Shown here one piece after another: positions 1-44,695 of a DNA stretch of 64,000 bases. Position 1 is the first letter of the stretch. Every line of letters starts with the position of its first letter. The position numbers were made by a program, and so were the translations under genes. The notes under the pieces were generated by a model. That model made no database searches. It was not told the origin of the DNA and worked only from the letters and a program-made list of their open reading frames with translations. This stretch comes from a virus: the IMG/VR virus record IMGVR_UViG_3300020048_000003. One strand, 5' to 3'.

Positions 1-186
1 ACTAAACATAATTATGTAACAAAACAAGAAAGTGCAAAAGTAGGTGATAAATCAGAAGAATTTATTTTTTTAAGAGGTGAGTGGTTTGGATTGCAGAAAG
101 AAAAAGAAAAGAAAATTTTCCCAGCATCACAAGAAGAAATTGAATTTTATGAATTACATGATACTACAAATAAATATAATTTATGA
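1..186 (+). CDS. Fam-A small protein, 5'-truncated by window edge (ends ...TTNKYNL)
   Basis: Open frame from nt 1; C-terminal ...EEIEFYELHDTTNKYNL. Its TGA stop overlaps the next ATG (ATGA). Confidence 0.6.
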   Translation, partial: TKHNYVTKQESAKVGDKSEEFIFLRGEWFGLQKEKEKKIFPASQEEIEFYELHDTTNKYNL

Positions 187-452
187 AATATATAAAGACA
201 TACGAATCATATCCAAACCAAAAGAATAATGGAAGAATCAAAAAAGGTTCTTATGTTATATTAACTGGTTATTATGATATGAGATATTTTACTAAAGATA
301 AGCCATATAAAGTTGTTGATGTTAATAAAGCAGGTGATATAAAAATATATAATGATAAAAGAGAAATAGATATTATATCAAGAAGTCAATATGAAAAAGT
401 AAATAGAAAAGATATAAAACTTAATTTAGCAATAAGTAAATATAATTTATGA
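183..452 (+). CDS. Fam-A small protein (MKYIKTYE...SKYNL)
   Basis: Conserved N- and C-termini; ATGA coupling on both sides. Confidence 0.75.
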   Translation: MKYIKTYESYPNQKNNGRIKKGSYVILTGYYDMRYFTKDKPYKVVDVNKAGDIKIYNDKREIDIISRSQYEKVNRKDIKLNLAISKYNL

Positions 453-745
453 AATATTTGAAAATGTATGAAGATAATTTTGGGACACAGAAATATGAAG
501 TGGATGACTATGTTTTTTTATTAAATAATAGAAGATTCTGGAATTTAAACGTTTGTTGTAAAATTATAGATGTACTGGAAATTAAAAATGGAACAATAAG
601 TTATAAAATTAAAACTTTTTGGATTGATGATCCATCCAAAGAAGAAAAAGTATGGGTACTTCAGAAAGAAATTGAAAGAAAATTAACTCCAGAAGAAGTA
701 GAAGAATTTGAATTTAATCAAACTACAAATAAATATAATTTATGA
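449..745 (+). CDS. Fam-A small protein (MKYLKMYE...TNKYNL)
   Basis: Family termini; ATGA overlaps. Confidence 0.75.
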   Translation: MKYLKMYEDNFGTQKYEVDDYVFLLNNRRFWNLNVCCKIIDVLEIKNGTISYKIKTFWIDDPSKEEKVWVLQKEIERKLTPEEVEEFEFNQTTNKYNL

Positions 746-1101
746 GAACATACGAAAATTTTATAACGGATTTATTTAAGAAAAAGGAACCTATAATCAA
801 TAAATATAAAGTTGGTGATTATGTTGTTTATGATCCATTTTCTTTAAGAAATGATGATACTTTTTATGATTATGTTGGAAAAATTGTAGATATTCATAAT
901 AATACTGAGTTCAAGACTGGTTCATATACCATAGAAGGTGGAATACAATATGGAAGATCAGGAACATCAGGAGGTTTAGGTATGCCAGGAAAGAAGTTTA
1001 CTATATCACAATTAAATGATAGAGATTTTGAACGATTATTAACACCAGAAGAAATTGAAGAATTTGAATATAGAGAAAATATAAAAAAATATAATCTATG
1101 A
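742..1101 (+). CDS. Fam-A small protein (MRTYENF...KKYNL), VGDYV barrel core
   Basis: Variant N-terminus MRTYENF shared with the next gene; C-terminal LTPEEIEEFEY..KKYNL. Confidence 0.7.
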   Translation: MRTYENFITDLFKKKEPIINKYKVGDYVVYDPFSLRNDDTFYDYVGKIVDIHNNTEFKTGSYTIEGGIQYGRSGTSGGLGMPGKKFTISQLNDRDFERLLTPEEIEEFEYRENIKKYNL

Positions 1102-1433
1102 GAACATACGAAAATTTTATTGAAAATAAAAACCGATATTGGATAGTTGCGTCTAAATTTTTAGAGTCGGCATTAGAAGAAATTGGTACACCTAATTCAG
1201 GTGATGATTTATTTATAGAAGTTGATTCTTTCATAAATCATAAATTATCAGAACCAGGTCAATCATATGAATATGTAATAATCACTAATGATGTGAGGTT
1301 AAATCATAATGGTAAACATTGGGATTGGTTGTCTATGTCTGATGAAAACTTGGAATGGTTGAAAAACCATGAATATGAATATATGGGTACATTGCCAGAA
1401 TTTTATTCTGATACAAATAAATATAATTTATGA
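1098..1433 (+). CDS. Fam-A small protein (MRTYENF...TNKYNL)
   Basis: Family termini; ATGA overlaps. Confidence 0.7.
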   Translation: MRTYENFIENKNRYWIVASKFLESALEEIGTPNSGDDLFIEVDSFINHKLSEPGQSYEYVIITNDVRLNHNGKHWDWLSMSDENLEWLKNHEYEYMGTLPEFYSDTNKYNL

Positions 1434-1819
1434 AATATATAAAATTATTTGAATACGCCTTTAGAAAAGGAAAAGGAAATATAAATCTGAATGAGATTTA
1501 TATTTTATTTGATACTAATGAAGGTCATACACTTAATAAAGAAGTGGCAGAACAACAAAAAGTTCAATTGTTAGATATGTTTAAGAAACATTTTGAGATA
1601 GATGAAGACACAGAAGAATATGCTATGACTAACCACGCTTGGGCTTGGATAGTTAGATCATATACTATGAGTAGAGAAAGTTCACTTTCAATAAGTATAG
1701 TAACCACAAATGGTTGGTCAATTAGTGAAAAATCCACTGTAATAGAAGCAGAAGAACTTATAAGAATAGGATTAGAAAATTTAGATACTTATTTAGATGC
1801 AAAAAAGTATAATTTATGA
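1430..1819 (+). CDS. Fam-A small protein (MKYIKLFE...KKYNL)
   Basis: Family termini; ATGA overlaps. Confidence 0.75.
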   Translation: MKYIKLFEYAFRKGKGNINLNEIYILFDTNEGHTLNKEVAEQQKVQLLDMFKKHFEIDEDTEEYAMTNHAWAWIVRSYTMSRESSLSISIVTTNGWSISEKSTVIEAEELIRIGLENLDTYLDAKKYNL

Positions 1820-2157
1820 AATATATAAAATTGTTTGAAATGGAGAAGGATGAAGCAGATTTTTATTATCATGTGCCATATAATAATCTTACATTAATAG
1901 AGATTGTTTTAGAGAAGTTAAAGGTTTATAATGTTGATAAAATGATAACTGAAATTCGTGATAATTATAAAGAATTTAAAAGCTTATATCTTTTCATTTA
2001 TCTTGATAATGAATGGAAAAGAGCACAATTTTGGGTAATTAGAGATAATAAAGATGATTATCTTGCTAATTCGTATGCTGATGAAAATCATATTTATTAT
2101 AAAGGTGAATATGAATTAGAGCCTTATGAAGTATCAGCAGTAAAATATAATATTTAA
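1816..2157 (+). CDS. Fam-A small protein (MKYIKLFE...VKYNI)
   Basis: Family termini. Confidence 0.75.
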   Translation: MKYIKLFEMEKDEADFYYHVPYNNLTLIEIVLEKLKVYNVDKMITEIRDNYKEFKSLYLFIYLDNEWKRAQFWVIRDNKDDYLANSYADENHIYYKGEYELEPYEVSAVKYNI

Positions 2158-2159
2158 AG

Positions 2160-2462
2160 ATGAAATATATAAAAACATTTGAAAATCAAAACCCAAAATT
2201 AGTTGATGCCGCTAGATTTGGTGAATTTAAAAAACTTAAAGATATACTGCGTAATGGTGCGGATGTAAATACAGATTATAACGGAAGAAATGCTATATTT
2301 TGGGCAGTTTATAATGGAAATTTAGAAATGGTTAAGTATTTAATAAATTCTGGTGCTAATGTAGATGACCATATTTTAACAATTGCTAGAGGAAATTGGA
2401 ATAATCCAGAAATTATTAAAGAAATTCAGTTTGCTTTAGATGCAAATAAATATAATTTATAA
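2160..2462 (+). CDS. Fam-A small protein with ankyrin repeats
   Basis: MKYIKTFE...ANKYNL; interior GADVNTDYNGRNAIFWAVYNGNLEMVKYLINSGANVDD is a canonical ANK repeat pattern. Confidence 0.75.
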   Translation: MKYIKTFENQNPKLVDAARFGEFKKLKDILRNGADVNTDYNGRNAIFWAVYNGNLEMVKYLINSGANVDDHILTIARGNWNNPEIIKEIQFALDANKYNL

Positions 2463-2466
2463 AATG

Positions 2467-2826
2467 AAATATATAAAAGCATACGAATATGCAAAAAAAT
2501 CAGAATATTATTGGTTTATATGGGGAGATTATAAAACATTTTGTGATGTAGTAAAAGAATTTCTTTATCCAAAACAATATGAACACTTTTTAAGAAGTTC
2601 TGATACATATAAATTTGATGAAAGTGTAGTGGGTGGATTTATAACACAAAATTCCAAGAAAAAAGATGGGTATCTATTTTGGATATGTCACTCATTAGAA
2701 AATATGAAAGAAGCAGAAGAGTATTTTGAATTTGAGGGTGATATAATAGCAGGAGAACTTAAACTTATTGATAATAAATTAGTTAAAGATACGTTATATC
2801 GTGATATAAGAAAATATAACATTTGA
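2467..2826 (+). CDS. Fam-A small protein (MKYIKAYE...RKYNI)
   Basis: Start moved to the conserved MKYIK Met; the ORF-track start at 2440 is an in-frame upstream extension. Confidence 0.7.
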   Translation, partial: KYIKAYEYAKKSEYYWFIWGDYKTFCDVVKEFLYPKQYEHFLRSSDTYKFDESVVGGFITQNSKKKDGYLFWICHSLENMKEAEEYFEFEGDIIAGELKLIDNKLVKDTLYRDIRKYNI

Positions 2827-3107
2827 TGAAATATATAAAAACATACGAAATAATAGTCAATAAAAATACAGTTTATCCAAGTAAAAGTTTGGATAAATAT
2901 AAGTATAAAATTGGTGATTTGGTTCATGTTATAAATTACAGATTTGCTGGTAAAAGATGGAGTGAGAGTACAATATTTAAGATAGGTGCAATTGATACTG
3001 ACGCATATGATTGTTATTTTTTAGAACCAATATACTCTTATTTTAATGAAGAAAATTTAATACCAGTACCTGATTATGAATTAGATGCAATGAAATATAA
3101 TTTATAA
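2826..3107 (+). CDS. Fam-A small protein (MKYIKTYE...MKYNL), IGDLVHV barrel core
   Basis: Start taken at the second Met (MKYIK). Confidence 0.7.
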   Translation: MKYIKTYEIIVNKNTVYPSKSLDKYKYKIGDLVHVINYRFAGKRWSESTIFKIGAIDTDAYDCYFLEPIYSYFNEENLIPVPDYELDAMKYNL

Positions 3108-3108
3108 A

Positions 3109-3447
3109 ATGAAATATATAAAATTATTTGAACAAAAAGATGAATTAGAAATAGGAGACTATGTAATTTGTGTTGCTATGGATGAAAAAGATGATGAAAC
3201 AACATTAAATGATTTTTTGAAAGTGAACATTGGACGATTTATTGGAATTAAACCTAAGAAAATGAAAAAAAATAGAGATGCTTATATTGTTAAATTTGAT
3301 AAGGTGCCTAGTGATATACAAGCTGAGTTTGGTTCTAGTACAGATGGTATTAATGAAATATTTTTTGATAGATTTGAAATAATAGATTTTTCAAAGCACA
3401 AAGAAGACTTAGAACATTTTATACAAGCAAATAAATACAATTTATGA
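3109..3447 (+). CDS. Fam-A small protein (MKYIKLFE...ANKYNL)
   Basis: Family termini. Confidence 0.75.
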   Translation: MKYIKLFEQKDELEIGDYVICVAMDEKDDETTLNDFLKVNIGRFIGIKPKKMKKNRDAYIVKFDKVPSDIQAEFGSSTDGINEIFFDRFEIIDFSKHKEDLEHFIQANKYNL

Positions 3448-3851
3448 AATATATAAAATTATTTGAACAAAAAAATAAGGATCCTGAAAATGTTTTTTGG
3501 ATAATAAATGGCGATTTTGAGTATATCTTAAGTGTACTTAGAAAATTTTTGAAAAACAAGAGACATAGATTAGATTCTGGCTATGTAGATGCAGAGGAAA
3601 GAATTGCTGGAAATTTTGAAAATAATGTAAAAACTGATATTAGATATAATGAAAGTAATATTTTCGGTTTTTATTTAGCACATAGAGATGATAGATACAC
3701 TTATTGGGTTATAGATGAAAAAAGTGACGTAGAAGAAGGAAAAGAAAACTATATTGAAAACGATTATAAATTTGATGGTGAAATTAAATTAGAAAATAAT
3801 GAAATTGTAATAGATAGATTTATGGTAGATGTAGAAAATTATAATTTATAA
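3444..3851 (+). CDS. Fam-A small protein (MKYIKLFE...ENYNL)
   Basis: Family termini; last member of this array. Confidence 0.75.
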   Translation: MKYIKLFEQKNKDPENVFWIINGDFEYILSVLRKFLKNKRHRLDSGYVDAEERIAGNFENNVKTDIRYNESNIFGFYLAHRDDRYTYWVIDEKSDVEEGKENYIENDYKFDGEIKLENNEIVIDRFMVDVENYNL

Positions 3852-3866: not shown

Positions 3867-4667
3867 ATGATAACTAAATTTCAATTATATGAACGTGTTA
3901 AAGCCAGAAGCAATGAAGATTTTATCAAAATTGCAAAATCTATTCATGGTGATAAATACGATTACTCCAAAATTGATTATAAAAATACTAAAGAGCCAAT
4001 AATAATAATATGTCCTGAACATGGTGAATTTTTACAATCACCGGAAAAACACCAATATCAAAAAAGTGGTTGTCCTGTTTGTGCTGGTAATTTACAACAT
4101 ACAAATGAAACTTTTAAAGAGAAAGCACAACAAATACACGGTGATAAATATAATTATGATAAAGTAGATTATAAAAATGTAAAAACAAATGTAATTATAA
4201 CTTGTAGAAAGCACGGTGATTTTTCACAAAGACCAAATAATCATTTATCTGGTGATGGTTGCCCAAGATGTAATAGTTCTAAAGGAGAGGCAAAAGTTAT
4301 TCAATATCTTTTGAAACATAACATAGATTTTGAACCTCAGAAAAAATTTCCTGATTGTAAATTAATTAATCCTTTACCATTTGATTTTTATTTGCCAGCA
4401 CATCATATGTGTATAGAATATGATGGCGAACAACATTTTGGACAATCAAGAAAATTTACATCAGAACAGTATGAGAAAACTATAATGAAAGATGAAATTA
4501 AAAATCAATATTGTAGAGATAACGATATAATCATGTTGAGAATTAAATATACTGATTTTAAGAATGTTGATAAAATTTTAGATGAAAATTTAGAAGATGT
4601 CTTGTCCAATAGATGGAGACTCAGGAAGTTTAGAGCATCTTCTAGATATTACCAATATTACCACTAA
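3867..4667 (+). CDS. Homing-endonuclease-like protein: two tandem Zn-ribbon repeats plus a C-terminal PD-(D/E)xK-like (DUF559/Vsr-like) nuclease
   Basis: Two copies of IHGDKY(D/N)Y.K(I/V)DYKN....II.C..HG.F...P..H....GCP.C; C-terminal FDFYLP...IEYDGEQHF resembles the DUF559/Vsr nuclease core. Confidence 0.5.
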   Translation: MITKFQLYERVKARSNEDFIKIAKSIHGDKYDYSKIDYKNTKEPIIIICPEHGEFLQSPEKHQYQKSGCPVCAGNLQHTNETFKEKAQQIHGDKYNYDKVDYKNVKTNVIITCRKHGDFSQRPNNHLSGDGCPRCNSSKGEAKVIQYLLKHNIDFEPQKKFPDCKLINPLPFDFYLPAHHMCIEYDGEQHFGQSRKFTSEQYEKTIMKDEIKNQYCRDNDIIMLRIKYTDFKNVDKILDENLEDVLSNRWRLRKFRASSRYYQYYH

Positions 4668-5725: not shown

Positions 5726-6127
5726 TTATAAATTGTAATTTATCATATCAATTTCTAACTCTGTTGCTTTAACAAAATATTCATTTTTAGAAATTAATTT
5801 ACCTCTTTTATATGCTGAACTATCTCTTATCAAAGCAAAATAATACCAGAACGTTTTTAGTTTTTCATATTTATTCTCATAAATAAGAACTCTGATTTTA
5901 TATCCTTGATCACTAGTTATATAACAAGATAGAGAATCAGAGTCAGTATCATTTTGCTCTGGATTTATGTCTTCTATTTTGTATAATTTATCTTTAGTTG
6001 TATCAAAAAATATTTGGTGTATACCCGTAGGTAATTCATCAAACCAATATGCAGGAAAACCAGTACTAGGTTTCCTCCATATTGCAACTTTACATTTGAT
6101 ATAATCACCTACTTTATAATTGTTCAT
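5726..6127 (-). CDS. Fam-A-like small protein (ends ...MINYNL), KVGDYIKCKV barrel core
   Basis: C-terminal YNL junction motif; ATGA overlap with the downstream gene. Confidence 0.65.
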   Translation of the reverse strand: MNNYKVGDYIKCKVAIWRKPSTGFPAYWFDELPTGIHQIFFDTTKDKLYKIEDINPEQNDTDSDSLSCYITSDQGYKIRVLIYENKYEKLKTFWYYFALIRDSSAYKRGKLISKNEYFVKATELEIDMINYNL

Positions 6128-8543: not shown

Positions 8544-8800
8544 TTTAATTTTTCTAATTTCTTTTTACGATATTCTTTATTAGTCATATAAGGTATTTCA
8601 TTTGATACTGATAATTCTTGATCCCCACTAAAATGTCTCAATCCCATTATACCAGAAATATTAGGTTGAATTTGAATTTGATAATTGTTAATCATTTTAT
8701 AAAATCTGTCATCATGTCCTTTTGAAACCCAGAAAGTGTTTCTATTTATATCATATTTAGATATACCATAAAACCTAATATATTTATCTACTATTATCAT
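8534..8800 (-). CDS. Fam-B small protein (tail YRKKKLEKLKCI)
   Basis: Conserved tail. Confidence 0.6.
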   Translation of the reverse strand: MIIVDKYIRFYGISKYDINRNTFWVSKGHDDRFYKMINNYQIQIQPNISGIMGLRHFSGDQELSVSNEIPYMTNKEYRKKKLEKLKCI

Positions 8801-9065
8801 TTAATTTTACTATTTTTTCTTTTCTAACTTCTTTTAATCGTTTGAATGTATAACTTCTTACCAAATAACCAGCCTCTAAACCAATATCACTTTCTATCCA
8901 AATAGAAAAATCTGGATTAGAATCTTTTATTATGGTATAAATTTTACCTACAGTTAAATGAATTGGAAAACTAAAATTTGCTTCTACTAAAACAACTTTT
9001 TCGCCTTTCTTAAGATAAGTAAGGTTACTTTCCTCCTCCTCAAAAGGTTTGAAACTTTTTATCAT
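8784..9065 (-). CDS. Fam-B small protein (tail RLKEVRKEKIVKLN)
   Basis: Conserved tail. Confidence 0.6.
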   Translation of the reverse strand: MIKSFKPFEEEESNLTYLKKGEKVVLVEANFSFPIHLTVGKIYTIIKDSNPDFSIWIESDIGLEAGYLVRSYTFKRLKEVRKEKIVKLNDNSR

Positions 9066-9562
9066 ATTGTATTAAGTTTTTGTAATTTTTCTTTTCTTCC
9101 TTCAGTTTTTAGATAAGAATCAAATCTAAATTGTAAAATAATTCTAGAACCTTGAAATGTTAGATAGTCCACCCAAGGTTTTACATTATTTTTAATATCA
9201 TATAATTCTGCTCTCCATTTTTCAGTTAAAAATAATTTAGCAAATAATTCATAATCAGATGTTTTTATTTTATATCCACCACCGTAAACACCTTCTGAAT
9301 TTGGAAAATTGAAACAGAATTTATAGGTAAAAGATGTATATGACTGACCTTCAAATTTAATAATATCTGGTGTGTTGTTAAACAACATACCATTTTCAAT
9401 GAATTGATTCATCCATTTTTCATACAAATAGCCAACTTTACACTCTTCATAATAAAATTGGCTATAAGAGAAACGACGGTTATCATCAAAACTATTGCAA
9501 TAATCATGTAAATCCGTTCTAGTTGGATGTAATATACTTCTATTCATAGTTTTCTTCTTCAT
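9062..9562 (-). CDS. Fam-B-tailed protein (GRKEKLQKLNTI)
   Basis: 166-aa ORF; ATGA coupling. Confidence 0.55.
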   Translation of the reverse strand: MKKKTMNRSILHPTRTDLHDYCNSFDDNRRFSYSQFYYEECKVGYLYEKWMNQFIENGMLFNNTPDIIKFEGQSYTSFTYKFCFNFPNSEGVYGGGYKIKTSDYELFAKLFLTEKWRAELYDIKNNVKPWVDYLTFQGSRIILQFRFDSYLKTEGRKEKLQKLNTI

Positions 9563-9785
9563 CGTAAAACCATACTGTTGATTTATTCAATTTTTTAGCA
9601 ACATATTCAGCAACAGAATTTATACTATATCCTCCAAAGTGTTCATGAAATTTACTCTTTGGATTCATAATACATGAATTTCCACCATCGGTTAATACAA
9701 TGGTGTCTTTTGAATAATCTACTTGAAAATAATCAAGAAAATCATAACATTCTTCTAAAAATTCTTCTTCTGATATTTTTGCCAT
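9540..9785 (-). CDS. Hypothetical small protein
   Basis: 81-aa ORF. Confidence 0.45.
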   Translation of the reverse strand: MAKISEEEFLEECYDFLDYFQVDYSKDTIVLTDGGNSCIMNPKSKFHEHFGGYSINSVAEYVAKKLNKSTVWFYDEEENYE

Positions 9786-9875
9786 TCATTTATTTTTAAT
9801 AATTTATCCTTACGAAGTTTTATTTTCTTCTTTTTTTCTTGTTCTCTTAGTTTATTTAGAAAAATCTGATATAAA

Positions 9876-10145
9876 TCAATCCCCATTTATCTTATTTATT
9901 TTATATTTTCTATTCTTTTTAAGAAAAAGTTTTTTAATCTCATTAAACATTTTAATATCATTTTCTACTCCCAATTCCGTATATGTTATATTATTATCAT
10001 ATTCTTCATAAAAATAATTACAATCTTCGCAAAGATATTCTTGAAGAACTTTACCCAAAACGACTGGGCAATCTCTATCGCCATATTTACACCCATGTTT
10101 TATACAACAATGTGTTCTATGTACTCCAATTTTATCTACTCTCAT
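9876..10145 (-). CDS. Cys-rich (zinc-binding) small protein
   Basis: HRTHCCIKHGCKYGDRDCP...CEDC. Confidence 0.45.
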   Translation of the reverse strand: MRVDKIGVHRTHCCIKHGCKYGDRDCPVVLGKVLQEYLCEDCNYFYEEYDNNITYTELGVENDIKMFNEIKKLFLKKNRKYKINKINGD

Positions 10146-19463: not shown

Positions 19464-21347
19464 TTATTTTTTAAATGTACTTATAGTATCAATTACAACT
19501 CCCTTAATTTCTTCTTGTGAAATTAGTTTTAATTTTGATATTTCTAACATTCTATTAAATAGTTCTGGATTCATATTTGACCGACCAGCAACATTCTTTT
19601 TTGATTCTATATTTCCATCAAAAAAGAATGAATGATGTATATAGCCTACTCCATTTGGTTTAAGTACTCTATAAATTTCACTCAAATAATTCTGAATAAC
19701 AAATTTATCCATATGAACAAAAGAATCCCAAGAAAAAACAAAATCCAAAGATTCATCTTTAAAATCGCTAAGACTTTTACCATTATTTATTGAATATTTT
19801 TCAATATAGTTACCAAACCTTTCTCTGCATTTTATAATACAATTCTCATTCAAATCAACAACACTAAGGTTATTTGTATATTTAAGCAAATATGTTGTTA
19901 TTCTACCATGTCCTGGCGCAATCTCTAAAACATTTCCTTTTATATAATCTTTAATTTTTGGATAGATAATTTCATTCCAAACTTTTTCTGTACCACCAAA
20001 AACATCTGACCATTCTTCACCATCTCTTTCCCATTCTGAATCATTATTCCAGAATTTTTGTTCTTTTGTATTATCATATACTTCAGTTTTTTCAATTTTA
20101 ACTTCTTTATTATGAGTTGATTTTAGAATTTCATATGCCTTTTTTGCTGAATTTTCCCAAGAAAATTCTTCTCTTATGAGTTCTGAATCTTTGATTGCTT
20201 TTTCTTTATATTGCCAATAGTTTATATAAACATCTCTCATAACTCTTGATAAGTCATGAAAATCTGGTTCTATATAATTACCAACTGAATTTGGAATTGG
20301 TTTTTCATCTAACACATTGACTGGATGACCTTTACCACTTGCAAATTCTAATTGACCACTCCAATTTGAATATATTGATGGTGTACCACAAGCCATAGCC
20401 TCTATAAGAGGTAAATTCCAACCTTCTGATCTTGCACAAGATAGAAATACATGACCATTTCTTAAATAGTTTATATAATCTTCTCTTTCAAGAAAATGAA
20501 GAACTTTTAATCTATCATCTTTAAAGTTGAATTTTTCTAATCTCTCTTCGGTAGTTTTCATTCCATCTACGGCATAATCAGCATTATCCACAGCTAAAAT
20601 TAAGTCAACTGGCTCGTTATTTTGAAATGTTTTAAGAAAGGTCTCAATGATTTCTTTGGTCGCTTTACGATACTCCCAACGACCTATAAGTATAAATTTA
20701 AATCTATTATCTTTATACAAATCTAAATTTTGATTAAAATAATCTGGTGAGAATATTTTACCGTCAACTGCTTCAGGTACTACATAAATTTTATCAGATG
20801 GATATCCTTGTTTTATAGCACATTCTTTCTGCCATTTAGAAGGAACCCATAGTTGATCAAATTTTTTAAGTTTTTCAAAAAAATTATCTTCGTATCTTGT
20901 TGATTCCCAGACATTATATGCTATTTTAGTTCCTTTATATTTTTCAATAGAATTAAAATAGTGATGATTTGTTTCACTTAGAACTATATCTATTATATCT
21001 TCTTGTTTGTATTCATTAAGATAAGTAAGTCCATCATTAACAGGATAATCACATATTCCAGAATCATATCTATTTTTTTCACTTTTACCACAGTAAAGTG
21101 TTTGCTCACATATTAGATTTCTTTGATAATCAGTAAGGTATGTTTCATTTTTATGTGGATCTCCATAAACACCTTTAGAATCAATTGTACCTAAACCATT
21201 CCAAGTTTTTCCAACTGTAAAATTTTTAACTTTTACTGGTGTTAGATGGCTTAGAGCAGTAAAAAAATCTCTTGCATGTGCATTATATCCTGTGTGTCCA
21301 ACGAAACTTGTATTACCTTTTACAAAAAAATTATTATTGATTTCCAT
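19464..21347 (-). CDS. Bifunctional glycosyltransferase (GT4-like) with a C-terminal class I SAM methyltransferase
   Basis: EGWNLPLIEAMACGTP (EX7E) in the N-terminal half; VLEIAPGHGRIT...LKPNGVGYIHHS in the C-terminal half. Confidence 0.7.
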   Translation of the reverse strand: MEINNNFFVKGNTSFVGHTGYNAHARDFFTALSHLTPVKVKNFTVGKTWNGLGTIDSKGVYGDPHKNETYLTDYQRNLICEQTLYCGKSEKNRYDSGICDYPVNDGLTYLNEYKQEDIIDIVLSETNHHYFNSIEKYKGTKIAYNVWESTRYEDNFFEKLKKFDQLWVPSKWQKECAIKQGYPSDKIYVVPEAVDGKIFSPDYFNQNLDLYKDNRFKFILIGRWEYRKATKEIIETFLKTFQNNEPVDLILAVDNADYAVDGMKTTEERLEKFNFKDDRLKVLHFLEREDYINYLRNGHVFLSCARSEGWNLPLIEAMACGTPSIYSNWSGQLEFASGKGHPVNVLDEKPIPNSVGNYIEPDFHDLSRVMRDVYINYWQYKEKAIKDSELIREEFSWENSAKKAYEILKSTHNKEVKIEKTEVYDNTKEQKFWNNDSEWERDGEEWSDVFGGTEKVWNEIIYPKIKDYIKGNVLEIAPGHGRITTYLLKYTNNLSVVDLNENCIIKCRERFGNYIEKYSINNGKSLSDFKDESLDFVFSWDSFVHMDKFVIQNYLSEIYRVLKPNGVGYIHHSFFFDGNIESKKNVAGRSNMNPELFNRMLEISKLKLISQEEIKGVVIDTISTFKK

Positions 21348-22276: not shown

Positions 22277-22864
22277 ATGGAAAAATTTACAAAAATGAAA
22301 GATAATCCAGTCATACCAGAAGAACAAGTTTTATATAATGGAAAATTCCTTGATGTGATTTCTTATAAAGATACAGAATTATTAAAAATTAGAGATAAAG
22401 TTGCTATTTTACCTTATTTTAGAGATGAAGCAACATTTTTAATGAGATTAGAATATACTCCTGCGTATCAATATAAAAATCGTGATAAATCAAATCTTAA
22501 AAGAATTACAAATTATTTAACAATTATGACAGAGGGAATGGAAGAAGGTGAAACTCCTGAAAAAACAATTAGAAGAGGCTTATACGAAGAAGGTGGACTT
22601 GTTTTGAATAATTTATATCCATTTGAGGTTGAAGGTCCTTTTTTTGTTGATAAATATACTACTGGACAAGTATGGGTTTGTTTTTTGGAACTTCCAGTTA
22701 ATTCATATCGTCAAATTAAACCACCAACAGATGGTTCAACAGCAGAAAAATTATCAAAATGTATAAGAGTTTCAGTTGGTGATATAGACCAGATTGTTAA
22801 TAATGATTTGATTTCTAAGTATATGATTACCAAATTAAAAACTAGGATTGAAAATGGTATATGA
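22277..22864 (+). CDS. Hypothetical protein (weak, degenerate Nudix-box-like ExxxxxxxRGLYEEGGL)
   Basis: 195-aa ORF; an upstream TAAATTTG promoter-like element is present. Confidence 0.5.
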   Translation: MEKFTKMKDNPVIPEEQVLYNGKFLDVISYKDTELLKIRDKVAILPYFRDEATFLMRLEYTPAYQYKNRDKSNLKRITNYLTIMTEGMEEGETPEKTIRRGLYEEGGLVLNNLYPFEVEGPFFVDKYTTGQVWVCFLELPVNSYRQIKPPTDGSTAEKLSKCIRVSVGDIDQIVNNDLISKYMITKLKTRIENGI

Positions 22865-23244
22865 ATCATTTAAAATTATTTGAAGGTTTTCTATCTACAA
22901 AGGCGACATATGAAGAAGAAGGTAGTGTATATTGGAAAATTAGTACTAAATCATTAGCATATATATTATTATCATTGGAAAAAATAGGTTTAGATTCTGA
23001 TGATATGATTTATATTGATGTTTATACTAATTTTCAAAAAGAAGATTTTAATGCAATATATTATGGAAATTTTTATATTGGAAGAGGATTAGATACTTTT
23101 GGAGTATTTTATTGGTACTGGTCCTATGATGTTTATTCATTCAAAGGTAAACGTTCTAATGAAATGGGTGGTGATAAATACAAATATAAAGGTTTAATTA
23201 AAATTGAAGATTGGGAATTAGCCGCAAATAAATATAACTTATAA
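22861..23244 (+). CDS. Fam-A small protein (MNHLKLFEG...ANKYNL)
   Basis: Family termini. Confidence 0.7.
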   Translation: MNHLKLFEGFLSTKATYEEEGSVYWKISTKSLAYILLSLEKIGLDSDDMIYIDVYTNFQKEDFNAIYYGNFYIGRGLDTFGVFYWYWSYDVYSFKGKRSNEMGGDKYKYKGLIKIEDWELAANKYNL

Positions 23245-23246
23245 CT

Positions 23247-23537
23247 ATGGAATATGCTAATGTGAAGACAATCAAAGAGTTTCAAAAATTAAAAGGTGAT
23301 ATTGAAAAGCAACTTGTTGATTTTATGAAAAATTATGATCAATTTATTAAATCTGTCGCACCATCACATTGGAGAACAACAGGAACACATTATCATCATT
23401 TAAGAGATTTGAAAGGTGATTTGAAATATTTTACGCCTGTACAATTAAAAGATTTGGAGCATGAAATGGTTAGAGACCAAGTTTTAACGGATGAAGAAAA
23501 AGATTTTTATAATACAGCAAAAAAATACAATATATGA
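23247..23537 (+). CDS. Fam-A-like protein (C-terminal ...AKKYNI only)
   Basis: C-terminal motif. Confidence 0.55.
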   Translation: MEYANVKTIKEFQKLKGDIEKQLVDFMKNYDQFIKSVAPSHWRTTGTHYHHLRDLKGDLKYFTPVQLKDLEHEMVRDQVLTDEEKDFYNTAKKYNI

Positions 23538-23773
23538 AAATAAGAAAGTTTAACGAATCCTCCTTTATTCCATCTAATGATGAGGAAATGAAAAATTTTA
23601 TTTATGATATTATAAGTAGTTATGTTGATATTAGAACTGTTGAATATCACCCTGATGATTATGAAGCAGATCCTGAATCAGAAGAAAAAGCCGCTGAACA
23701 AATTATAATTGAATTAAAGAAATTAGGAGTAGATTTTGATTTTATCTATAATGTAAAAAAATATAATGTATGA
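23534..23773 (+). CDS. Fam-A-like protein (MKIRKFNE...KKYNV)
   Basis: Termini. Confidence 0.55.
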   Translation: MKIRKFNESSFIPSNDEEMKNFIYDIISSYVDIRTVEYHPDDYEADPESEEKAAEQIIIELKKLGVDFDFIYNVKKYNV

Positions 23774-23958
23774 AATATTTACAAAAATTTGAAGAATATA
23801 CTCCAGTTGAATTTGTTGCACCTTTTCGTGAGCATCCATCATATAAAAATGAAGAAAAAAAGAAGAAGCGAAAAAGAAAAGGTCAATCTGCTGAAGCACC
23901 TGTAATGGTTCCACCAAATCACACAAAAGATGCGATTTCTTTTAAAGGTAGCTCTTAA
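23770..23958 (+). CDS. Fam-A N-terminus (MKYLQKFEEY) with a Lys-rich C-terminus; no KYNL
   Basis: N-terminal motif only. Confidence 0.45.
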   Translation: MKYLQKFEEYTPVEFVAPFREHPSYKNEEKKKKRKRKGQSAEAPVMVPPNHTKDAISFKGSS

Positions 23959-25358
23959 AATCTCTTGAACCTAGTAATAAGTTTTTCTGTTGTTGATATT
24001 TGTTTAAATTTATCCTTAGTTCTATAAGAAGATTTCATTTCACCTCCTAAATCATAAAGTATTAAATTTTCGTGATTTTCATCCCAACCTAAATTACCCT
24101 GGTGAAAATCTGTATCATGTACACCTTTTAATTTAAGTTCTTTAACTATATTTAAGATTTTTGGATAAATATCAATTGCGATTTTCTCTACATCTTTAGG
24201 GTCTCTCTCATTTGCTAATATCCTTTTATTTTCTACTGAATTTGGTCTAAATAACACAAATTGAATATGATCTATCATATTTTTTTTGTCTTTAACGTTT
24301 TCATAATATTCAGGATTATTCTGAATCATACCTTTATAACAATGAATTGCATCTTTCTCATTTTCAGTTAATTCTCCTACATAATCCATTAATATATACC
24401 ATTTATAAACATTAGTATCTAATCCAATATTTTTGTTCAAAATATTGATTTCTCCCACGTTATAATAGTTGACTATATATTTAGACCATTTCTTATTTTT
24501 AGATAATTTATATGCAATATGTACTTCATTTTCATCCGAAGTTATTTTTAAAACTTTACCAGATTTTGTTTTATATGCAAATCCATATCCACCACCACCA
24601 AGATAACTATCAATTTCTTCACCTAAATCATCAGCGATTTCTAGTATTCTCTTTTTTATTGTAGGTGTTGGATAATTATATTCTTCTAATACGGAATATT
24701 TTTTCAATTTAACTTTTGGTTGTTTACCATATGGATCATATCTTTTTGTTATATCAAATAAGATTAACCTTGTATGATCATGATTCCAACCTAAATTACC
24801 ACCATGAAAATCACATTGTTCTATGTTATGTTTTTTTAATTCTTTTGCAATATTTTTAATATGAGGAATAAAACTTATAGCATTTTTTTTCATTTCATAA
24901 ATATCATACATACTTGAAAGTAGTGGTCGGTTTTGTTTAAGTTTAATAGTAGTAAAACTGTGATTGATATTATCTATTAATTCATCATCAAATGCACTTT
25001 TATAAAAAGATTTTGAAAATTGAAAAATAGGTTTAAAGACATAATCAATCATTACTTTTTCTTCTTTTGGTAATGGTTCAACGTAATCCATTAATATAAA
25101 ATACTTAAAGTCATTTGTTGTATTCTCTATTTCACCTACATTGTAATAATTTAGAATATATTTAAATAAATTTTTGTGTCTTGCCAACTTCTTTGCTATA
25201 ATGATTTCATTTGTATCATAAGTAAGTTTCAATACTCTTCCTGACTCAAGTGAAAAAACAACACCAAAATCACCTGAACCTATTTCTTCAATAAGTTTTT
25301 CTCCTAATTCATCGGCAATTTTAATTGCTAATTTTTCTGTTGCACTAAGAAATTTCAT
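23955..25358 (-). CDS. Tandem protein-kinase-like (PKL/APH-like) domain protein
   Basis: Two copies of a Gly loop plus VLK (IGSGDFGVVF...VLKL; LGGGGYGFAY..VLKI) and of DFH(G/Q)GNLGW, which resembles the HGDLHPGN catalytic loop. Confidence 0.5.
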   Translation of the reverse strand: MKFLSATEKLAIKIADELGEKLIEEIGSGDFGVVFSLESGRVLKLTYDTNEIIIAKKLARHKNLFKYILNYYNVGEIENTTNDFKYFILMDYVEPLPKEEKVMIDYVFKPIFQFSKSFYKSAFDDELIDNINHSFTTIKLKQNRPLLSSMYDIYEMKKNAISFIPHIKNIAKELKKHNIEQCDFHGGNLGWNHDHTRLILFDITKRYDPYGKQPKVKLKKYSVLEEYNYPTPTIKKRILEIADDLGEEIDSYLGGGGYGFAYKTKSGKVLKITSDENEVHIAYKLSKNKKWSKYIVNYYNVGEINILNKNIGLDTNVYKWYILMDYVGELTENEKDAIHCYKGMIQNNPEYYENVKDKKNMIDHIQFVLFRPNSVENKRILANERDPKDVEKIAIDIYPKILNIVKELKLKGVHDTDFHQGNLGWDENHENLILYDLGGEMKSSYRTKDKFKQISTTEKLITRFKRF

Positions 25359-25882
25359 AAATTATAATTATTTGCTGTTGATTTTAATTTATCAATTGTT
25401 ATATATTCCTCACAATATCCATCTTCTCTTTTTGGATGACCTTTTAATTTAAATGATATAAAACAACTATTTCCATCAAAAAGGTAACCAATACCTTCAA
25501 TTGTACCTTCAAATGGTTCCTGAGTTAATAAATCTATGAAACCACTAGAAATATATTTACCAGTAAGTTCTTTATTTAAGAAAATTTTGAAATGTTTTGG
25601 TGCGGCATATATTGACATCATGAAATCTTCCCAAAGTTTTTTGATGTTTATAATTATTTCATCTTCATCTTCTTGAAAATTTCTTTCTCTAACTAATGGA
25701 AGAAAATCTTCTTTATATAATTGTTTTTCAGATTTTTCATTATGATCCCAAGGTTCATCATCTTCTGGATCTATTGTACCGTTTTCAAACCCAGGCACAA
25801 CTTCAGGCTCATATTTTTCTGGTTCAAACATTCCAGGAAATTCATCTTTTATACTATCTTCAAAATATTTTAAATATATCAT
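25355..25882 (-). CDS. Fam-A small protein (MIYLKYFE...NNYNL)
   Basis: Termini. Confidence 0.7.
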   Translation of the reverse strand: MIYLKYFEDSIKDEFPGMFEPEKYEPEVVPGFENGTIDPEDDEPWDHNEKSEKQLYKEDFLPLVRERNFQEDEDEIIINIKKLWEDFMMSIYAAPKHFKIFLNKELTGKYISSGFIDLLTQEPFEGTIEGIGYLFDGNSCFISFKLKGHPKREDGYCEEYITIDKLKSTANNYNL

Positions 25883-26289
25883 AGGTTATATCTCTTTATA
25901 TTTTTAGAATATTCAATTTTCTCAACTGCTTGATTAAATTCCTCTTTTGTATTGAATTTTCTCACATAATCTTCACATACCCAACTATCATATTGTTCTT
26001 TTTTAAAAGAATTTGATATTATTGAACTTATAGATGCTTCTTTTATGTTTCTTTTTTGCTCCGGTGTTAATTCACATAAATGATGAATTAGAAACAATTT
26101 ATTATTTTCTTTTTTATCAAAATGACCAATATCTACGACAATTCCATATGTATTGTGCCAACATGCTTTTGTGTTTTTATCATTTCGTCCTGTCCATGTA
26201 TCTTCTATAACTACATAATCTCCTATATTAATATCAGTATTGAAAGATTCAAATCTTTTAATAAAACGCATAGAAAAGAAATCTCTCAT
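25879..26289 (-). CDS. Fam-A small protein (..FIKRFE...KRYNL), IGDYVVIED barrel
   Basis: Termini. Confidence 0.65.
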   Translation of the reverse strand: MRDFFSMRFIKRFESFNTDINIGDYVVIEDTWTGRNDKNTKACWHNTYGIVVDIGHFDKKENNKLFLIHHLCELTPEQKRNIKEASISSIISNSFKKEQYDSWVCEDYVRKFNTKEEFNQAVEKIEYSKNIKRYNL

Positions 26290-38498: not shown

Positions 38499-39020
38499 AT
38501 GAAACATTTAAAAACATACGAAGGAAGAGAATTAAATAAATATGAACGTAAGGTTATTTATAAACATTTAAATAAAAATGATTCTCTAAAATTAGAAGAA
38601 CATATTGAAAAATATGTTCTTGATAATAATATTATAGGTAAAATATCCAAATTAAAATTGAAAGATTATACTTCAAATTCTTTGGATTATGATTCTCTTT
38701 GGGAATCTGATATTATTTCATCTGGTATGTATGATGAACCAACAAATATTTATCGTGTTTGTGATGAATTTTGTTTTAATAATTGTGAGGTTGTTGGAAG
38801 AACAAATACACCAGCTGTACGAAATACACTTTCTGATATTTCAAAAAAATTATATAAAAAATATAATGTAAGAGATAAATTAAATAAACAACTTATAAAA
38901 CTATTAGAGAAAAATCCTCCAAATTATAGAGATTTTTATGAAACTTGGGAAGAAGAATTAACAAACGAAGTAAGATTAGCATGTCAATATATGCTGGATT
39001 CAGAAAATTATAATCTATAA
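38499..39020 (+). CDS. Fam-A protein (MKHLKTYEG...SENYNL)
   Basis: Termini. Confidence 0.7.
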   Translation: MKHLKTYEGRELNKYERKVIYKHLNKNDSLKLEEHIEKYVLDNNIIGKISKLKLKDYTSNSLDYDSLWESDIISSGMYDEPTNIYRVCDEFCFNNCEVVGRTNTPAVRNTLSDISKKLYKKYNVRDKLNKQLIKLLEKNPPNYRDFYETWEEELTNEVRLACQYMLDSENYNL

Positions 39021-39114
39021 TGAAATACCTTAAGAAAAAAATAAGTGCAAACAGATTAACGTCAAAAGAAAGAGTAGAGTTTGAATATCAAAGAAATATA
39101 AGGAAATATAATTT

Positions 39115-39579
39115 ATGAAATTTTTAAAAGTTTTTGAAGAATACAGAGTTTATAATCATAAACTATATATTGATCATGTTATGGAAGAAGAATTAAAAGT
39201 AGAAATTCAATATCCAGAAGATTCTATTGTTATACCAGAAAGTAAATATGATATTGATGTTATAGAATATTTCAAAGAAATATTTTTAGATAAATATATT
39301 ACATTTAAGAGTGTAGATACACCCAAAGGACACCCACAAATGCAAGGTTTTGTTTTAGATGTTGATCAACTTGCGTATCAAGATGAATTTTATATTAGAG
39401 TTAAATTAGCACAGGCAGTATATTCAGAATTTCCAGAGTGGCTTGGTCATAATAATTTAGATGATTGGTATTTAATAAATAATACAAAACCAGTACTTGT
39501 ACAACACTATGATGCTGATACTAAACCATTACATAAAGAAGTAGAATTTAAAAAAGAGGCAGGAAGATATAATTTATGA
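39115..39579 (+). CDS. Fam-A protein (MKFLKVFEEY...GRYNL)
   Basis: Termini. Confidence 0.7.
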   Translation: MKFLKVFEEYRVYNHKLYIDHVMEEELKVEIQYPEDSIVIPESKYDIDVIEYFKEIFLDKYITFKSVDTPKGHPQMQGFVLDVDQLAYQDEFYIRVKLAQAVYSEFPEWLGHNNLDDWYLINNTKPVLVQHYDADTKPLHKEVEFKKEAGRYNL

Positions 39580-40079
39580 AATATATTAAAACATTTGAAA
39601 ATAAAGAACTAAATCTTCATTTAATGATGTGTGATTTTTTATCTAAAATAAATGATAAAGAATATTTAGTTACTAGATTTTTTTATTATAGAGGTATGAC
39701 AGAGGGTAATACTTTAGCATTTAAAAGATATGAAAATTATCCCCGTGTTAATACATATCCTATTTTTTCAATTACATTTAAAGATGTAAATGACACAAAA
39801 TTACGAGGTGTTGCAAATAAGCCAAAGATGAAAGTTATTGTAAATTATGAATATGATATGGCTGGTGTTAAGGATGTTCAGTTCGTTACAATGTTGAAAG
39901 ACTTTATTGTTGATGTGTTTACAAAATATTCTTATTTTCATAAAAAGCGTGATAAATATTATAGAAAAGATTTTTGTAGTCATGATTTCTATATTAATAC
40001 ATCTGAAATTTCAAATATTATGAATGATTTTGAGAATGAATTTGATTTTTATGTTAATACAAGAAAATATAACTTATAA
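39576..40079 (+). CDS. Fam-A protein (MKYIKTFE...TRKYNL)
   Basis: Termini. Confidence 0.75.
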   Translation: MKYIKTFENKELNLHLMMCDFLSKINDKEYLVTRFFYYRGMTEGNTLAFKRYENYPRVNTYPIFSITFKDVNDTKLRGVANKPKMKVIVNYEYDMAGVKDVQFVTMLKDFIVDVFTKYSYFHKKRDKYYRKDFCSHDFYINTSEISNIMNDFENEFDFYVNTRKYNL

Positions 40080-40339
40080 TGAAATATATTAAAACATTTG
40101 AATCTGATAAATATACTTTTGGTGAGTATGTTATGTTTTTTAATAAGATGAAACGTTTAGATGAGTTAGATGGACTATTGTGGGACAAACTAGAGTTAGC
40201 AGAAATTCTTGCGTTAGATTCTGATAGAGATGAATATTATATTGAGATAAAAGAAGATGGTGATGAACTTTGGGTAGGTGCTGACCAAATTCGTAAATTG
40301 ACTGATTTTGAAAAAGATACATTAAAATATAATTTATGA
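40079..40339 (+). CDS. Fam-A small protein (MKYIKTFE...TLKYNL)
   Basis: Termini. Confidence 0.75.
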   Translation: MKYIKTFESDKYTFGEYVMFFNKMKRLDELDGLLWDKLELAEILALDSDRDEYYIEIKEDGDELWVGADQIRKLTDFEKDTLKYNL

Positions 40340-40653
40340 AACATATAAAAACATTTGAAAGTAGTTCTGATGATAGAAAAAAAGCCGAAGATGAATTTGT
40401 AGGAAAATTATATAAAATATATCCTACACATAATCCAAGTGAAATGATAGCTATAGCAAAATGTGTAAGTATATTAGGAATGCATAGTAATTGGGGTGAT
40501 TTTGAAGGTTATATTATTCACCCACCAATGTCTAAAGGTAGATTTTATGCAGATTCTGAATTTTTAAATGGAATTGGTAAAGAAAATGAAGTAAGTAAAG
40601 AAGATATTGAAGAATATGAATTATATAATACAATGAATAATTATAACCTATGA
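40336..40653 (+). CDS. Fam-A small protein (MKHIKTFE...MNNYNL)
   Basis: Termini. Confidence 0.75.
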   Translation: MKHIKTFESSSDDRKKAEDEFVGKLYKIYPTHNPSEMIAIAKCVSILGMHSNWGDFEGYIIHPPMSKGRFYADSEFLNGIGKENEVSKEDIEEYELYNTMNNYNL

Positions 40654-41150
40654 TAAAATTATTTGAATCTTATTCGTTAAAAAGTGATATAGAAGAACTT
40701 TCTAGTGCTATACTAGATTTATCTAAAAATGTTTTTAAAGATATTAAACCAAAACCTTTTGGTGTTTGCTCTTGGATAAGTATTCCTGTTTGTCAATTTT
40801 CACTTTATTATAATAGTCAAACAATATTTTATTGTATTATGGAAATATCTAAAGAAATGGATAATGAATTTGCAAGAAATCAATTTAACGGACAGATACC
40901 AGATGAATATTATACACAAGATATTACTATCAAAATAATTAGGCAATATCCTTTTAATACAAAGTTTATTGAACCTTTTTTTAACTATTTAAGATATATA
41001 GTATTATCAGTTAGTGAAGTTACAAATAAGAGGATATCTTCTACTAGTTTTATTAGTTCAATAAAACAGGAGAATGTTAAAGAAATTATATCAAAGTTAA
41101 ATATAGAAGATTATGAACTTTGGTTAGAAGCAAGTAAATACAATTTATAA
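40650..41150 (+). CDS. Fam-A protein (MIKLFESY...ASKYNL)
   Basis: Termini. Confidence 0.7.
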   Translation: MIKLFESYSLKSDIEELSSAILDLSKNVFKDIKPKPFGVCSWISIPVCQFSLYYNSQTIFYCIMEISKEMDNEFARNQFNGQIPDEYYTQDITIKIIRQYPFNTKFIEPFFNYLRYIVLSVSEVTNKRISSTSFISSIKQENVKEIISKLNIEDYELWLEASKYNL

Positions 41151-41381: not shown

Positions 41382-42422
41382 ATGAAATATATTAAAGAGT
41401 ATAAAATATTTGAAAGAAAAGGAAATTATCAGTTATTTCATAAAACTAACGAATATGCTCTAAATCTTATTGTTAATAGTGGTTTTATAAAATGTGGTGG
41501 TGATTCAAATGATGATGAAGATGATTACAAATGGTGGAATTATGGATTAAGAAAAAATGTTTTTTCTGATTGGAAGCAAGATGATAAAAAATTCAAAACT
41601 ATCTCAGCGACAAGAAATTTAGATTATCTTTGGTTGCCAGCATTAGAATTAGATGTTGAAAAAATTTCAGATAAATATAGAATTGTACCATTTAGTGAGA
41701 ATCCAGATTATTATTTAGATTTTTATGGTGGTGATGATGGATTTGCTAGTAGTGGTGAAAAATATGGAAAAATGAAATCTAGAAAAAATCCTATATTACC
41801 ATTAAAAAATAAGAAGAAATTAACTAATTTTCAAAATATGATAAGATCAAAATCAAAAGATGCTGGTAAATTATTTTGGAGATTTAAGACAGATAAAGAT
41901 GTTATGGATTATGGTATAGCAGAAGAGTTAATTCTTACTGATAAATTAGATTTCGGAAAATATGTAAAAAGAGTAATTTTGAGAAAAGATTTTGGAAATG
42001 AAAATGAAAAATTAATTAAACTAATTAATAAAAAATATCCTAATGTTGAAGTTGTTGAAATTGATAGAAGAAATAGTGGTGGTTTCAATTATATGGATGT
42101 TAAAAGAGTATCTAAACAGAAAGAAAAAGAAAAAGAATTAGCATTACAAGAAAGCAAAAAACCTATACCAGAATATAAAAAAGGTGATTATGTTCATTTA
42201 GAAGATGATGAAACTTGGACAGTTTATCAAACCGCAAAAGTAATTAGTTTAAATTCAAATGTTGATTTACAAAATAATGATTATTATATAGAAGCATTTT
42301 TGAAACAAAATAATAAACCTGTTGAATTTTGGGTTGATGATTACGATATAGATAGAAAATCTACAAATGAAGAAATTGCAGAGTTAGAAATAATAAAAAA
42401 TGCAATTAAATATAATTTATGA
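41382..42422 (+). CDS. Fam-A large member (346 aa; MKYIKEYK...IKYNL)
   Basis: Termini; C-terminal STNEEIAELEII helix. Confidence 0.7.
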   Translation: MKYIKEYKIFERKGNYQLFHKTNEYALNLIVNSGFIKCGGDSNDDEDDYKWWNYGLRKNVFSDWKQDDKKFKTISATRNLDYLWLPALELDVEKISDKYRIVPFSENPDYYLDFYGGDDGFASSGEKYGKMKSRKNPILPLKNKKKLTNFQNMIRSKSKDAGKLFWRFKTDKDVMDYGIAEELILTDKLDFGKYVKRVILRKDFGNENEKLIKLINKKYPNVEVVEIDRRNSGGFNYMDVKRVSKQKEKEKELALQESKKPIPEYKKGDYVHLEDDETWTVYQTAKVISLNSNVDLQNNDYYIEAFLKQNNKPVEFWVDDYDIDRKSTNEEIAELEIIKNAIKYNL

Positions 42423-43955: not shown

Positions 43956-44020
43956 ACTAGCTATATTAGAATTTGTATTGTTGCAATGATAAGGAATAAT
44001 TTTTAAAATAAAAAATAAAA

Positions 44021-44046: not shown

Positions 44047-44072
44047 ATCAGGTTCATTTGAATATCGCATTT

Positions 44073-44681: not shown

Positions 44682-44695
44682 ATTTTTCTATTATT

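Follow-up and report, generated by a model that had tools for sequence, protein, structure and literature searches.

In a 64,000-nucleotide stretch of viral DNA (IMG/VR record IMGVR_UViG_3300020048_000003; hereafter the window), we find about 50 small genes that lie head to tail in co-oriented arrays and whose products, judged from sequence, have nothing in common except a short peptide tag at each end. The junction at positions 1412-1452, where one such gene stops and the next begins, was originally predicted to be a conserved DNA repeat that obligately couples translation and promotes the shuffling of whole cassettes. That reading missed the terminal tags. The "junction repeat" is the coding sequence of two peptides in a tightly packed, AT-biased genome and not a DNA element, and its DNA homology is a by-product; a repeat of about 40 nt arises because the genes are packed head to tail, with a last codon of the form NNA and a TGA that overlaps the next ATG. 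We re-center the finding on the terminal peptide tags, with cassette shuffling as a secondary and partly supported consequence. On balance, and with reasonable rather than strong confidence, we favor a peptide-tagged family of unrelated cargo proteins whose tag-coding DNA serves as occasional recombination homology.

At 1412-1452 the stop/start overlap is exactly as first described. The open reading frame (ORF) at 1098-1433 ends in EFYSDTNKYNL and a TGA stop, and the ORF at 1430-1819 begins MKYIKLFE from an ATG that shares its TG with that stop. The junction is also abundant and non-random: a 29-nt consensus has 12 sites in the window at three or fewer mismatches and none in 100 dinucleotide-preserving shuffles. 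At the peptide level, 55 open frames in the window close with x-[Y/F]-N-[L/I/V]-stop, about 50 of them genuine, and 39 of these tagged ends are followed within 40 nt by a start resembling the N-terminal motif MK[Y/H][I/L]Kx[F/Y]E. The claim of more than 45 repeats thus holds for tagged gene ends but not for the full junction, which numbers 39. The stop/start overlap expected of translationally coupled genes is found as ATGA in 30 of the 39 and as a 1-nt overlap in two, the remainder having spacers of 1-32 nt, so that "every boundary" was too strong. Relaxed junctions are indeed present: the TAA stop is followed by a 2-nt spacer at 2155-2160 and by a 1-nt spacer at 2460-2464.

Sequence logos and codon counts were drawn from 278 non-redundant members of the window and 45 fetched loci. 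The N-terminal tag reads M1 K2 [Y/H]3 [I/L]4 K5 x6 [F/Y]7 E8 with no conservation past position 8, and the C-terminal tag reads [E/D][E/D]Φ[E/D]Φxx[D/N][A/T][N/K]-K-Y-N-[L/I]-stop, an acidic amphipathic helix followed by a tail. When ORFs are picked by the N-tag alone, 90% end in KYN[L/I]. The interiors behave very differently from the ends: once the first 9 and last 14 residues of each protein are masked, BLASTP finds similarity at E<1e-3 in just 2 of about 1100 pairs, and the full-length similarity of a single domain family is not seen. A Pfam scan of the members finds only ankyrin repeats, in two of them, and no Pfam or PHROG model covers the tags. Three different folds are found among the interiors (SH3-like, ankyrin, and ADP-ribosyltransferase (ART)), and many interiors match nothing. 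As far as sequence comparison goes, the family is defined by its two ends only and the cargo between them is unrelated.

An ordinary fold family, grown by tandem duplication, could in principle give a similar picture if the termini were its structural core, such as paired terminal strands, around diverged interiors. Sizes are uniform (median 111 aa) and an SH3-like "vGDyV" core recurs in many members; AlphaFold2 models 3109-3447 as an SH3-like barrel with a C-terminal helix, for which Foldseek against the PDB gives nothing significant and only a generic SH3/chromo-barrel resemblance. We nevertheless regard this explanation as very improbable, since members include ankyrin repeats, an ART fold, a 457-aa protein, and a 32-aa gene that is little more than its tags and is also gene-called on a contig in the European Nucleotide Archive (ENA). 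Homologs of the ART domain are fused to differing terminal modules, and the C-tag stays with whichever module comes last. In addition, AlphaFold2 confidence (pLDDT) is low for the tags in both models, each built from a shallow alignment (14 and 39 sequences): it is below 50 for residues 1-9 and for the KYNL tail (109-112) of 3109-3447 and for residues 1-7 of 41382-42422, whose C-terminal blocks average 53-55. These values are consistent with flexible tails.

Tag variants occur in related loci. In one lineage, C-tags at 8600-9900 and 20000-20800 of locus L057 are extended by one or two residues (KKYNI-SL-stop, KYNII-stop, KYNIL-stop), and most of these genes still finish in TTATGA or ATATGA overlapping the next ATG. 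Two sampled stretches from phage genomes of 636-642 kb (L045 from LR756502 and L046 from LR756504) hold genes with an N-tag (MKHLKIFE, MKNIKTFE, MKYIKHYE) and no KYNL end; of the two tags, the N-tag may be the older or the more widespread.

Codon usage separates selection on the peptides from selection on the DNA. Where the tags conserve K, Y, I, L, F, E, or N, synonymous codons are used much as in the interiors of the 278 members (tag versus interior: TAC 8% versus 8%; ATT/ATA 56/40 versus 45/50%; AAC 25% versus 13%), and TAT/TAC, AAT/AAC, AAA/AAG, ATA/ATT, and GAA/GAG all occur in tags near their background frequencies. DNA-level conservation of the junction is ruled out by this usage. Two departures from background can be explained. 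Where the protein ends in Leu or Ile, the final sense codon has A in third position in 95% and 80% of cases, respectively, because the overlapping ATG requires it. At Tyr-7, TAC makes up 42% of codons versus 8% in gene interiors; TAT-GAA in this place would introduce an out-of-frame ATG 19 nt downstream of the true start, and the preference looks like selection against a spurious start codon. Amino-acid replacements within the tags are rare and conservative. For instance, within one orthologous group pairwise identity is 80% in the N-tag, 36% in the interior, and 85% in the last five residues. The ratio of nonsynonymous to synonymous substitution rates (dN/dS) for the family is 0.22-0.41, as for functional genes. 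Both tags are also kept at array ends where there is no partner gene, and in relatives that replace ATGA by TAA and a 3-nt spacer or by a 28-nt spacer both peptides are retained. Given the background-like synonymous usage, the tags at array ends and across spacers, and the low pLDDT, we conclude that selection acts on two flexible terminal peptides and not on DNA.

The same data bear on whether the junction is primarily a signal in RNA or for translation, with UGA termination and reinitiation at the overlapping AUG in obligate coupling and the peptides incidental. The ATGA overlap is characteristic of the family, as first noted (28 of 39 family-family pairs versus 10 of about 60 other same-strand pairs), and a core resembling the Shine-Dalgarno sequence lies upstream of 5.6% of genes, the same as at random positions, so the genome does without such signals. 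The junction RNA is unstructured (six junctions; minimum free energy -0.4 to -4.9 kcal/mol, z -1.2 to +0.5), which suits an accessible start, and the NNA bias of the last codon would fit as well. Termination-reinitiation coupling through ATGA, in a genome without Shine-Dalgarno use, would plausibly operate here. As the sole reason for the junction, however, it is unlikely: tag synonymous positions vary at background rates while amino-acid changes are rare, both tags persist without a partner gene and, in the window as in its relatives, across TAA stops and spacers of 1-28 nt, and the conservation that reaches about 14 residues upstream is an amphipathic pattern and not a nucleotide motif. The spacers also show that any coupling would not be obligate, contrary to the original prediction. 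We consider explanations at the level of translation less likely than those in which the tags are address signals.

Other roles for the junction were considered and set aside. An RNA element finds no support, as the six junctions fold no better than shuffles and the window has no Rfam match. A programmed -1 frameshift fusing cassettes was rejected on inspection, since T-AAT-TTA does not fit a canonical slippery heptamer and the variants AAC/CTA occur commonly. The Bacteroidota -7 promoter motif (TAnnTTTG) was likewise absent from the junction on inspection.

We next consider recombination. At least one whole-cassette indel has its crossover in the junction repeat: a contig about 98% identical to the window (L064; sample ERZ27262927) matches it to position 186 and resumes at 746, so that 559 bp are missing, and the crossover falls inside a pair of exact 24-bp repeats. 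The missing segment is present in L063, L068, and L069, the long allele being found in two other assemblies, and the 2% single-nucleotide divergence of L064 argues against a same-strain chimera. The expected copy-number variation with a breakpoint in the junction repeat is therefore seen once among the relatives compared. Over larger distances the arrays are hyperplastic. Where relatives have an anchor protein about 80% identical to the vault-protein-like ORF of the window, that gene and its immediate neighbors are conserved, but the array beside it holds 4, 6, 2, or 4 genes in four lineages, with a single recognizably shared cassette; arrays next to a conserved anchor thus differ in number and content. 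A relative at about 83% identity keeps gene order and has a 29-nt insertion at one junction. Fused double cassettes in the database and the differing terminal modules of ART-domain homologs are further traces, and a scar at 52673-52735 looks like slippage or unequal recombination. In one further case, in-frame fusion seems to have produced a 200-aa gene of L059 (8100-9000) from the N-terminal ~90 aa of a 438-aa member and the C-terminal ~95 aa of a 110-aa member, both of L056 (5500-9000), which places the deletion breakpoints inside genes and not at a junction.

Several findings limit the extent of junction recombination. At strain level the evidence is one 1.5-kb metagenome contig (L064). The near-identical contigs L053, L061, and L063 (99.9-100%) show no indels or structural differences over 12-21 kb. 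When neighboring junctions were compared with shuffled ones at synonymous sites, the permutation was not significant in five of six comparisons, the other being the N-tag Ile codon (ATA in array 1 versus ATT in the 50-kb array, p=0.007). On this basis we reject concerted evolution, or gene conversion, among neighboring junctions, and recombination is not frequent enough to homogenize them. To call the repeats "near-identical" over 30-40 bp was also too strong: among 1431 junction pairs, the longest stretch of unbroken identity has a median of 9 bp, a 95th percentile of 20 bp, and a maximum of 35 bp, and is mostly 9-15 bp; self-BLAST of the window gives junction matches of 43-107 nt at 73-95% identity. 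In most pairs the exact identity is too short for homologous recombination to be efficient. Junction recombination thus does happen but is occasional, a consequence of the repeat and not its reason to exist.

Could the junction still be a dedicated recombination site, integron-like or otherwise, kept because it promotes shuffling? The clean indel, the hyperplastic arrays, the junction scars, and a homing-endonuclease-like gene that closes array 1 and has homologs (45-48% identity) one or two genes from arrays in L017, L026, and L028 point in that direction; those three loci were picked for containing arrays, so that any association is tentative. The arrays do resemble integrons in being co-oriented, tightly packed sets of individually exchangeable small ORFs with a repeated boundary. 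Unlike in integrons, the boundary lies inside coding sequence, there is no attC-type hairpin or inverted-repeat structure in the six junctions that were folded, and IntI was not found among the ORFs scanned. More broadly, no recombinase domain was found in the 30 larger non-family ORFs searched with Pfam (eight of which were also compared with PHROGs), a scan that did not extend to small ORFs or the remaining genome. The integron-like label is not supported. Another parallel is offered by the promoter-early stem-loop (PeSL) cassettes of T4-type phages (PMC2839356, PMC4122927), which likewise place short repeats between small non-essential genes, have close-relative indels with breakpoints in the repeat (here one case, L064), and form hyperplastic arrays. 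PeSLs, however, are non-coding promoter and terminator units kept for regulation, whereas the repeat here is the coding sequence of two tags; the genes overlap by 4 nt, leaving no intergenic DNA, no promoter-terminator unit, and no stem-loop. Together with the mostly 9-15-bp exact identity, the lack of concerted evolution, and the synonymous drift showing that junction DNA itself is not under selection, this makes a dedicated site most improbable, and cassette exchange, where seen, looks like plain homologous recombination. The proposed inversion between the two convergent arrays fared no better. Their convergence is correct, with a 76-aa plus-strand ORF (53064-53294) between them, but we found no evidence of inversion: inverted matches are 44-107 nt at 73-93% identity, and no exact inverted 30-mer exists among the junction pairs.

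The family is widespread in low-GC contigs of huge phages and confined to them. Together the tagged arrays of the window amount to 19.9 kb (31% of its length), and array 1 extends upstream past the window start. In IMG/VR the junction pattern is found in 44 stretches on about 30 contigs of 21-30% GC and up to 330 kb, several members each, and about 50 members nearly fill 20 kb of a 531-kb ENA contig. Out of 1.84 billion proteins, a profile of the window members matches at least 1032 cluster representatives (clustering at 50% identity) at E<=1e-3; nearly all of these are 100-125 aa long and align end to end. Among the genomes of 185,579 bacterial and archaeal species the pattern has one match, which lies in a Muribaculaceae metagenome-assembled genome on a contig of 25% GC that is probably phage and probably mis-binned. 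A megablast search of INPHARED phages with 20 kb of the window gave no match, a metagenome scan for close relatives of gene 1430-1819 gave one only (41% identity), and no description of a KYNL/MKYIK-tagged family was found in the literature. This is apparently a very large and undescribed protein family of huge phages. Given its share of the window and of 20 kb in the 531-kb relative, it is a concrete contributor to phage genome gigantism. Multigene families of African swine fever virus, the "accordion" arrays of poxviruses, and the ankyrin families of giant viruses likewise form tandem arrays over a large share of the genome with rapid turnover between relatives; those families share a whole-length fold, and this one shares termini only.

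What might two terminal tags do? We infer that they are linear address signals. In the mechanism we propose, these flexible peptides would send a changeable arsenal of small effectors into one common pathway, and the DNA encoding them would act as portable homology for the loss, gain, and fusion of cassettes. We regard packaging into the capsid along with the DNA, followed by joint delivery, as the likeliest candidate for this pathway, on the model of the capsid targeting sequence (CTS) of T4. The internal proteins of T4 are diverse and have only the CTS MKTYQEFIAE in common (PMC3012670, PMC8442874); within it, residues 4 and 7 determine targeting and residues 8 and 10 processing, and the packaged ADP-ribosyltransferase Alt is processed at both termini (PMC9026906). 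As in T4, a short N-terminal peptide is common here to otherwise unrelated small proteins of one phage (PMC3012670, PMC9026906), the gene set varies between relatives, as it does at T4 internal-protein loci, and one tagged member has an ART fold, where T4 packages the ART Alt. The N-tag and the CTS have a similar amphipathic pattern (MK, aromatic, hydrophobic, Glu), and Glu-8 of the N-tag is near-invariant (182 of 185 members). Members 742-1101 and 1098-1433 both start MRTYENFI, five of eight residues identical to the CTS and two similar, a match too short for statistics; for the family consensus the part in common with the CTS is MK and the hydrophobic pattern only. By analogy, capsid targeting of injected effectors is a serious possibility, though short of probable.

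An address of another kind would fit the peptide-level evidence equally. The tags could be handling signals for a chaperone, an adaptor, a protease responsible for timed degradation, or a phage-built compartment such as a vault-like shell. A conserved 809-aa gene resembling major vault protein (MVP) lies beside the arrays at 30777-33206, and a stand-alone C39 peptidase is encoded at 45947-46438. Encapsulins recruit cargo by short C-terminal loading peptides, and Dot/Icm substrates carry a C-terminal acidic "E-block" signal, so that diverse cargo with a short terminal peptide has precedent. In being short, flexible, and conserved, the C-tag, an acidic helix with a hydrophobic end, resembles these terminal signals; signals of that kind sit at one terminus while this family uses both, and the machinery here is hypothetical. 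The tags lack Gly-Gly, the leader motif that C39 peptidases cut, vault cargo is not known to use such tags, and all of these partners are candidates whose link to the tags is hypothetical. We rate a non-capsid partner as about as likely as capsid targeting or a little less so.

Several points count against the reading we favor, in which tagged cargo follows a common address, and above all against its T4-style form. The tag is bipartite, whereas the T4 CTS has no C-terminal partner. The (L/I)xE protease site of T4 is found in a minority of members: position 6 of the N-tag (P3 for gp21) is T in 61, K in 34, L in 30, and Q in 15 members, with others besides; the protease of this phage may differ in specificity. 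Most members are mildly acidic (median pI 5.3), unlike the basic T4 internal proteins IPII and IPIII. Packaging and cleavage are here predictions by analogy. Dozens to hundreds of members per genome contrast with three in T4, and hundreds of different cargo proteins per capsid would, to our knowledge, be unprecedented. The extended C-tag KKYNI-SL-stop means that a free C-terminal Leu is not essential, and the flexibility of the tails is read from models with shallow alignments.

If the tags are address signals, they mark an unannotated class of phage effectors with at least 1000 sequence clusters, recognizable from about 12 residues. They would then be a handle for finding anti-defense or host-takeover proteins in huge phages and a ready-made tag for loading foreign cargo into them, while the junction-mediated indel shows how the arrays expand and contract. 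More speculatively, huge phages may use a previously undescribed bipartite N- plus C-terminal address code to direct hundreds of small effectors to capsid packaging and injection or to a phage-built compartment, the tag DNA doubling as homology for reshuffling and helping to explain genome size; we put this forward tentatively. Coordinates of the features are collected in Table 1.

Table 1. Tagged genes, repeats, and associated features of the window.
Feature	Position	Strand	Remarks
Array 1	1-3851	+	3' end of a 165-aa member (1-186) and 11 tagged genes (183-3851)
Direct repeat, left copy	163-186	+	24 bp exact, ACTACAAATAAATATAATTTATGA
Indel segment, 559 bp	187-745	+	Two whole cassettes, 183-452 and 449-745
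Direct repeat, right copy	722-745	+	24 bp exact, ACTACAAATAAATATAATTTATGA
Junction	1412-1452	+	C-tag codons of ORF 1098-1433, TGA/ATG overlap, N-tag codons of ORF 1430-1819; 0 mismatches to consensus
Homing-endonuclease-like free-standing gene	3867-4667	+	Closes array 1, starts MITKFQLYE; phrog_559 E 6e-63, DUF723, treble-clef zinc finger
Isolated member	5726-6127	-	C-tag variant NYNL-stop
Short array, 4 genes	22861-23958	+	Three end KYN[L/I/V]; last has N-tag only
Two tagged genes	25355-26289	-	ATGA overlap between them
MVP-like ORF, 809 aa	30777-33206	-	MVP shoulder 1e-27, Vault_3, SPFH-like
Array, 4 tagged genes	34807-37350	+	109, 152, 130, and 457 aa; beside the vault-protein-like anchor gene
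Array, 7 tagged genes	38499-41150	+	Includes mini-gene 39020-39118; tagged stretch runs on to 42814
Tags-only mini-gene, 32 aa	39020-39118	+	MKYLKK..ERVEFEYQRNIRKYNL-stop: N-tag, short linker, C-tag helix
346-aa tagged member	41382-42422	+	ART-fold domain (DarT/Tpt1-like) and SH3-like module ending KYNL
131-aa tagged member	42419-42814	+	Last gene of array; KYNI-stop retained without downstream partner gene
Array, 11 tagged genes	49190-53010	+	Includes ankyrin member 50793-51233
Junction scar	52673-52735	+	12-bp tandem duplication (TACAATTTATAA TATAATTTATGA), then doubled N-tag MKYILE-MKHMKS
Array, 6 tagged genes	53297-55437	-	Convergent with array 49190-53010
Two members	56376-57309	+	56376-56843 N-tag only; 56833-57309 ends KYNL
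ORF with C-tag	57615-57935	-	RKYNI-stop
ORF with C-tag	63242-63568	-	DKYNV-stop

The window, which comes from a huge phage, is 25% GC, has no tRNA genes, and rarely uses TAG stops (4 of 125 genes). Its accessory genes are typical of very large phages and encode DNA methyltransferases, an RNA ligase, a radical-SAM enzyme, sugar-modifying enzymes, and a glucosaminidase in addition to the 809-aa vault-like ORF. ENA contig k141_278361 (209 kb) matches it at 99.97% identity over 21 kb without gaps, and one window protein also occurs on a 286.6-kb contig. The uncultured phages LR756500, LR756501, and LR756503 (462-735 kb) have ORFs about 52% identical to the vault-like ORF, and IMG/VR contigs of up to 501 kb have ORFs 80-83% identical to it; conservation of a vault-shell homolog across huge phages is unusual. 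The Peptidase_C39 domain protein (45947-46438, plus strand) is a cysteine protease of the bacteriocin-leader type that stands alone, without an attached ABC transporter. Three adjacent minus-strand genes at 42846-45754 encode a fusion of a response-regulator receiver domain with a bacterial sugar transferase (Bac_transf), a VWA protein, and a protein with collagen repeats and a zinc ribbon. Lastly, on the minus strand at 60220-61095, 61098-61694, and 62506-63303, a cadherin-domain protein adjoins LemA and TPM-phosphatase genes, and the cadherin-domain protein contains an internal repeat of about 170 bp (60587-60756 and 60836-61005) that is 75% identical.

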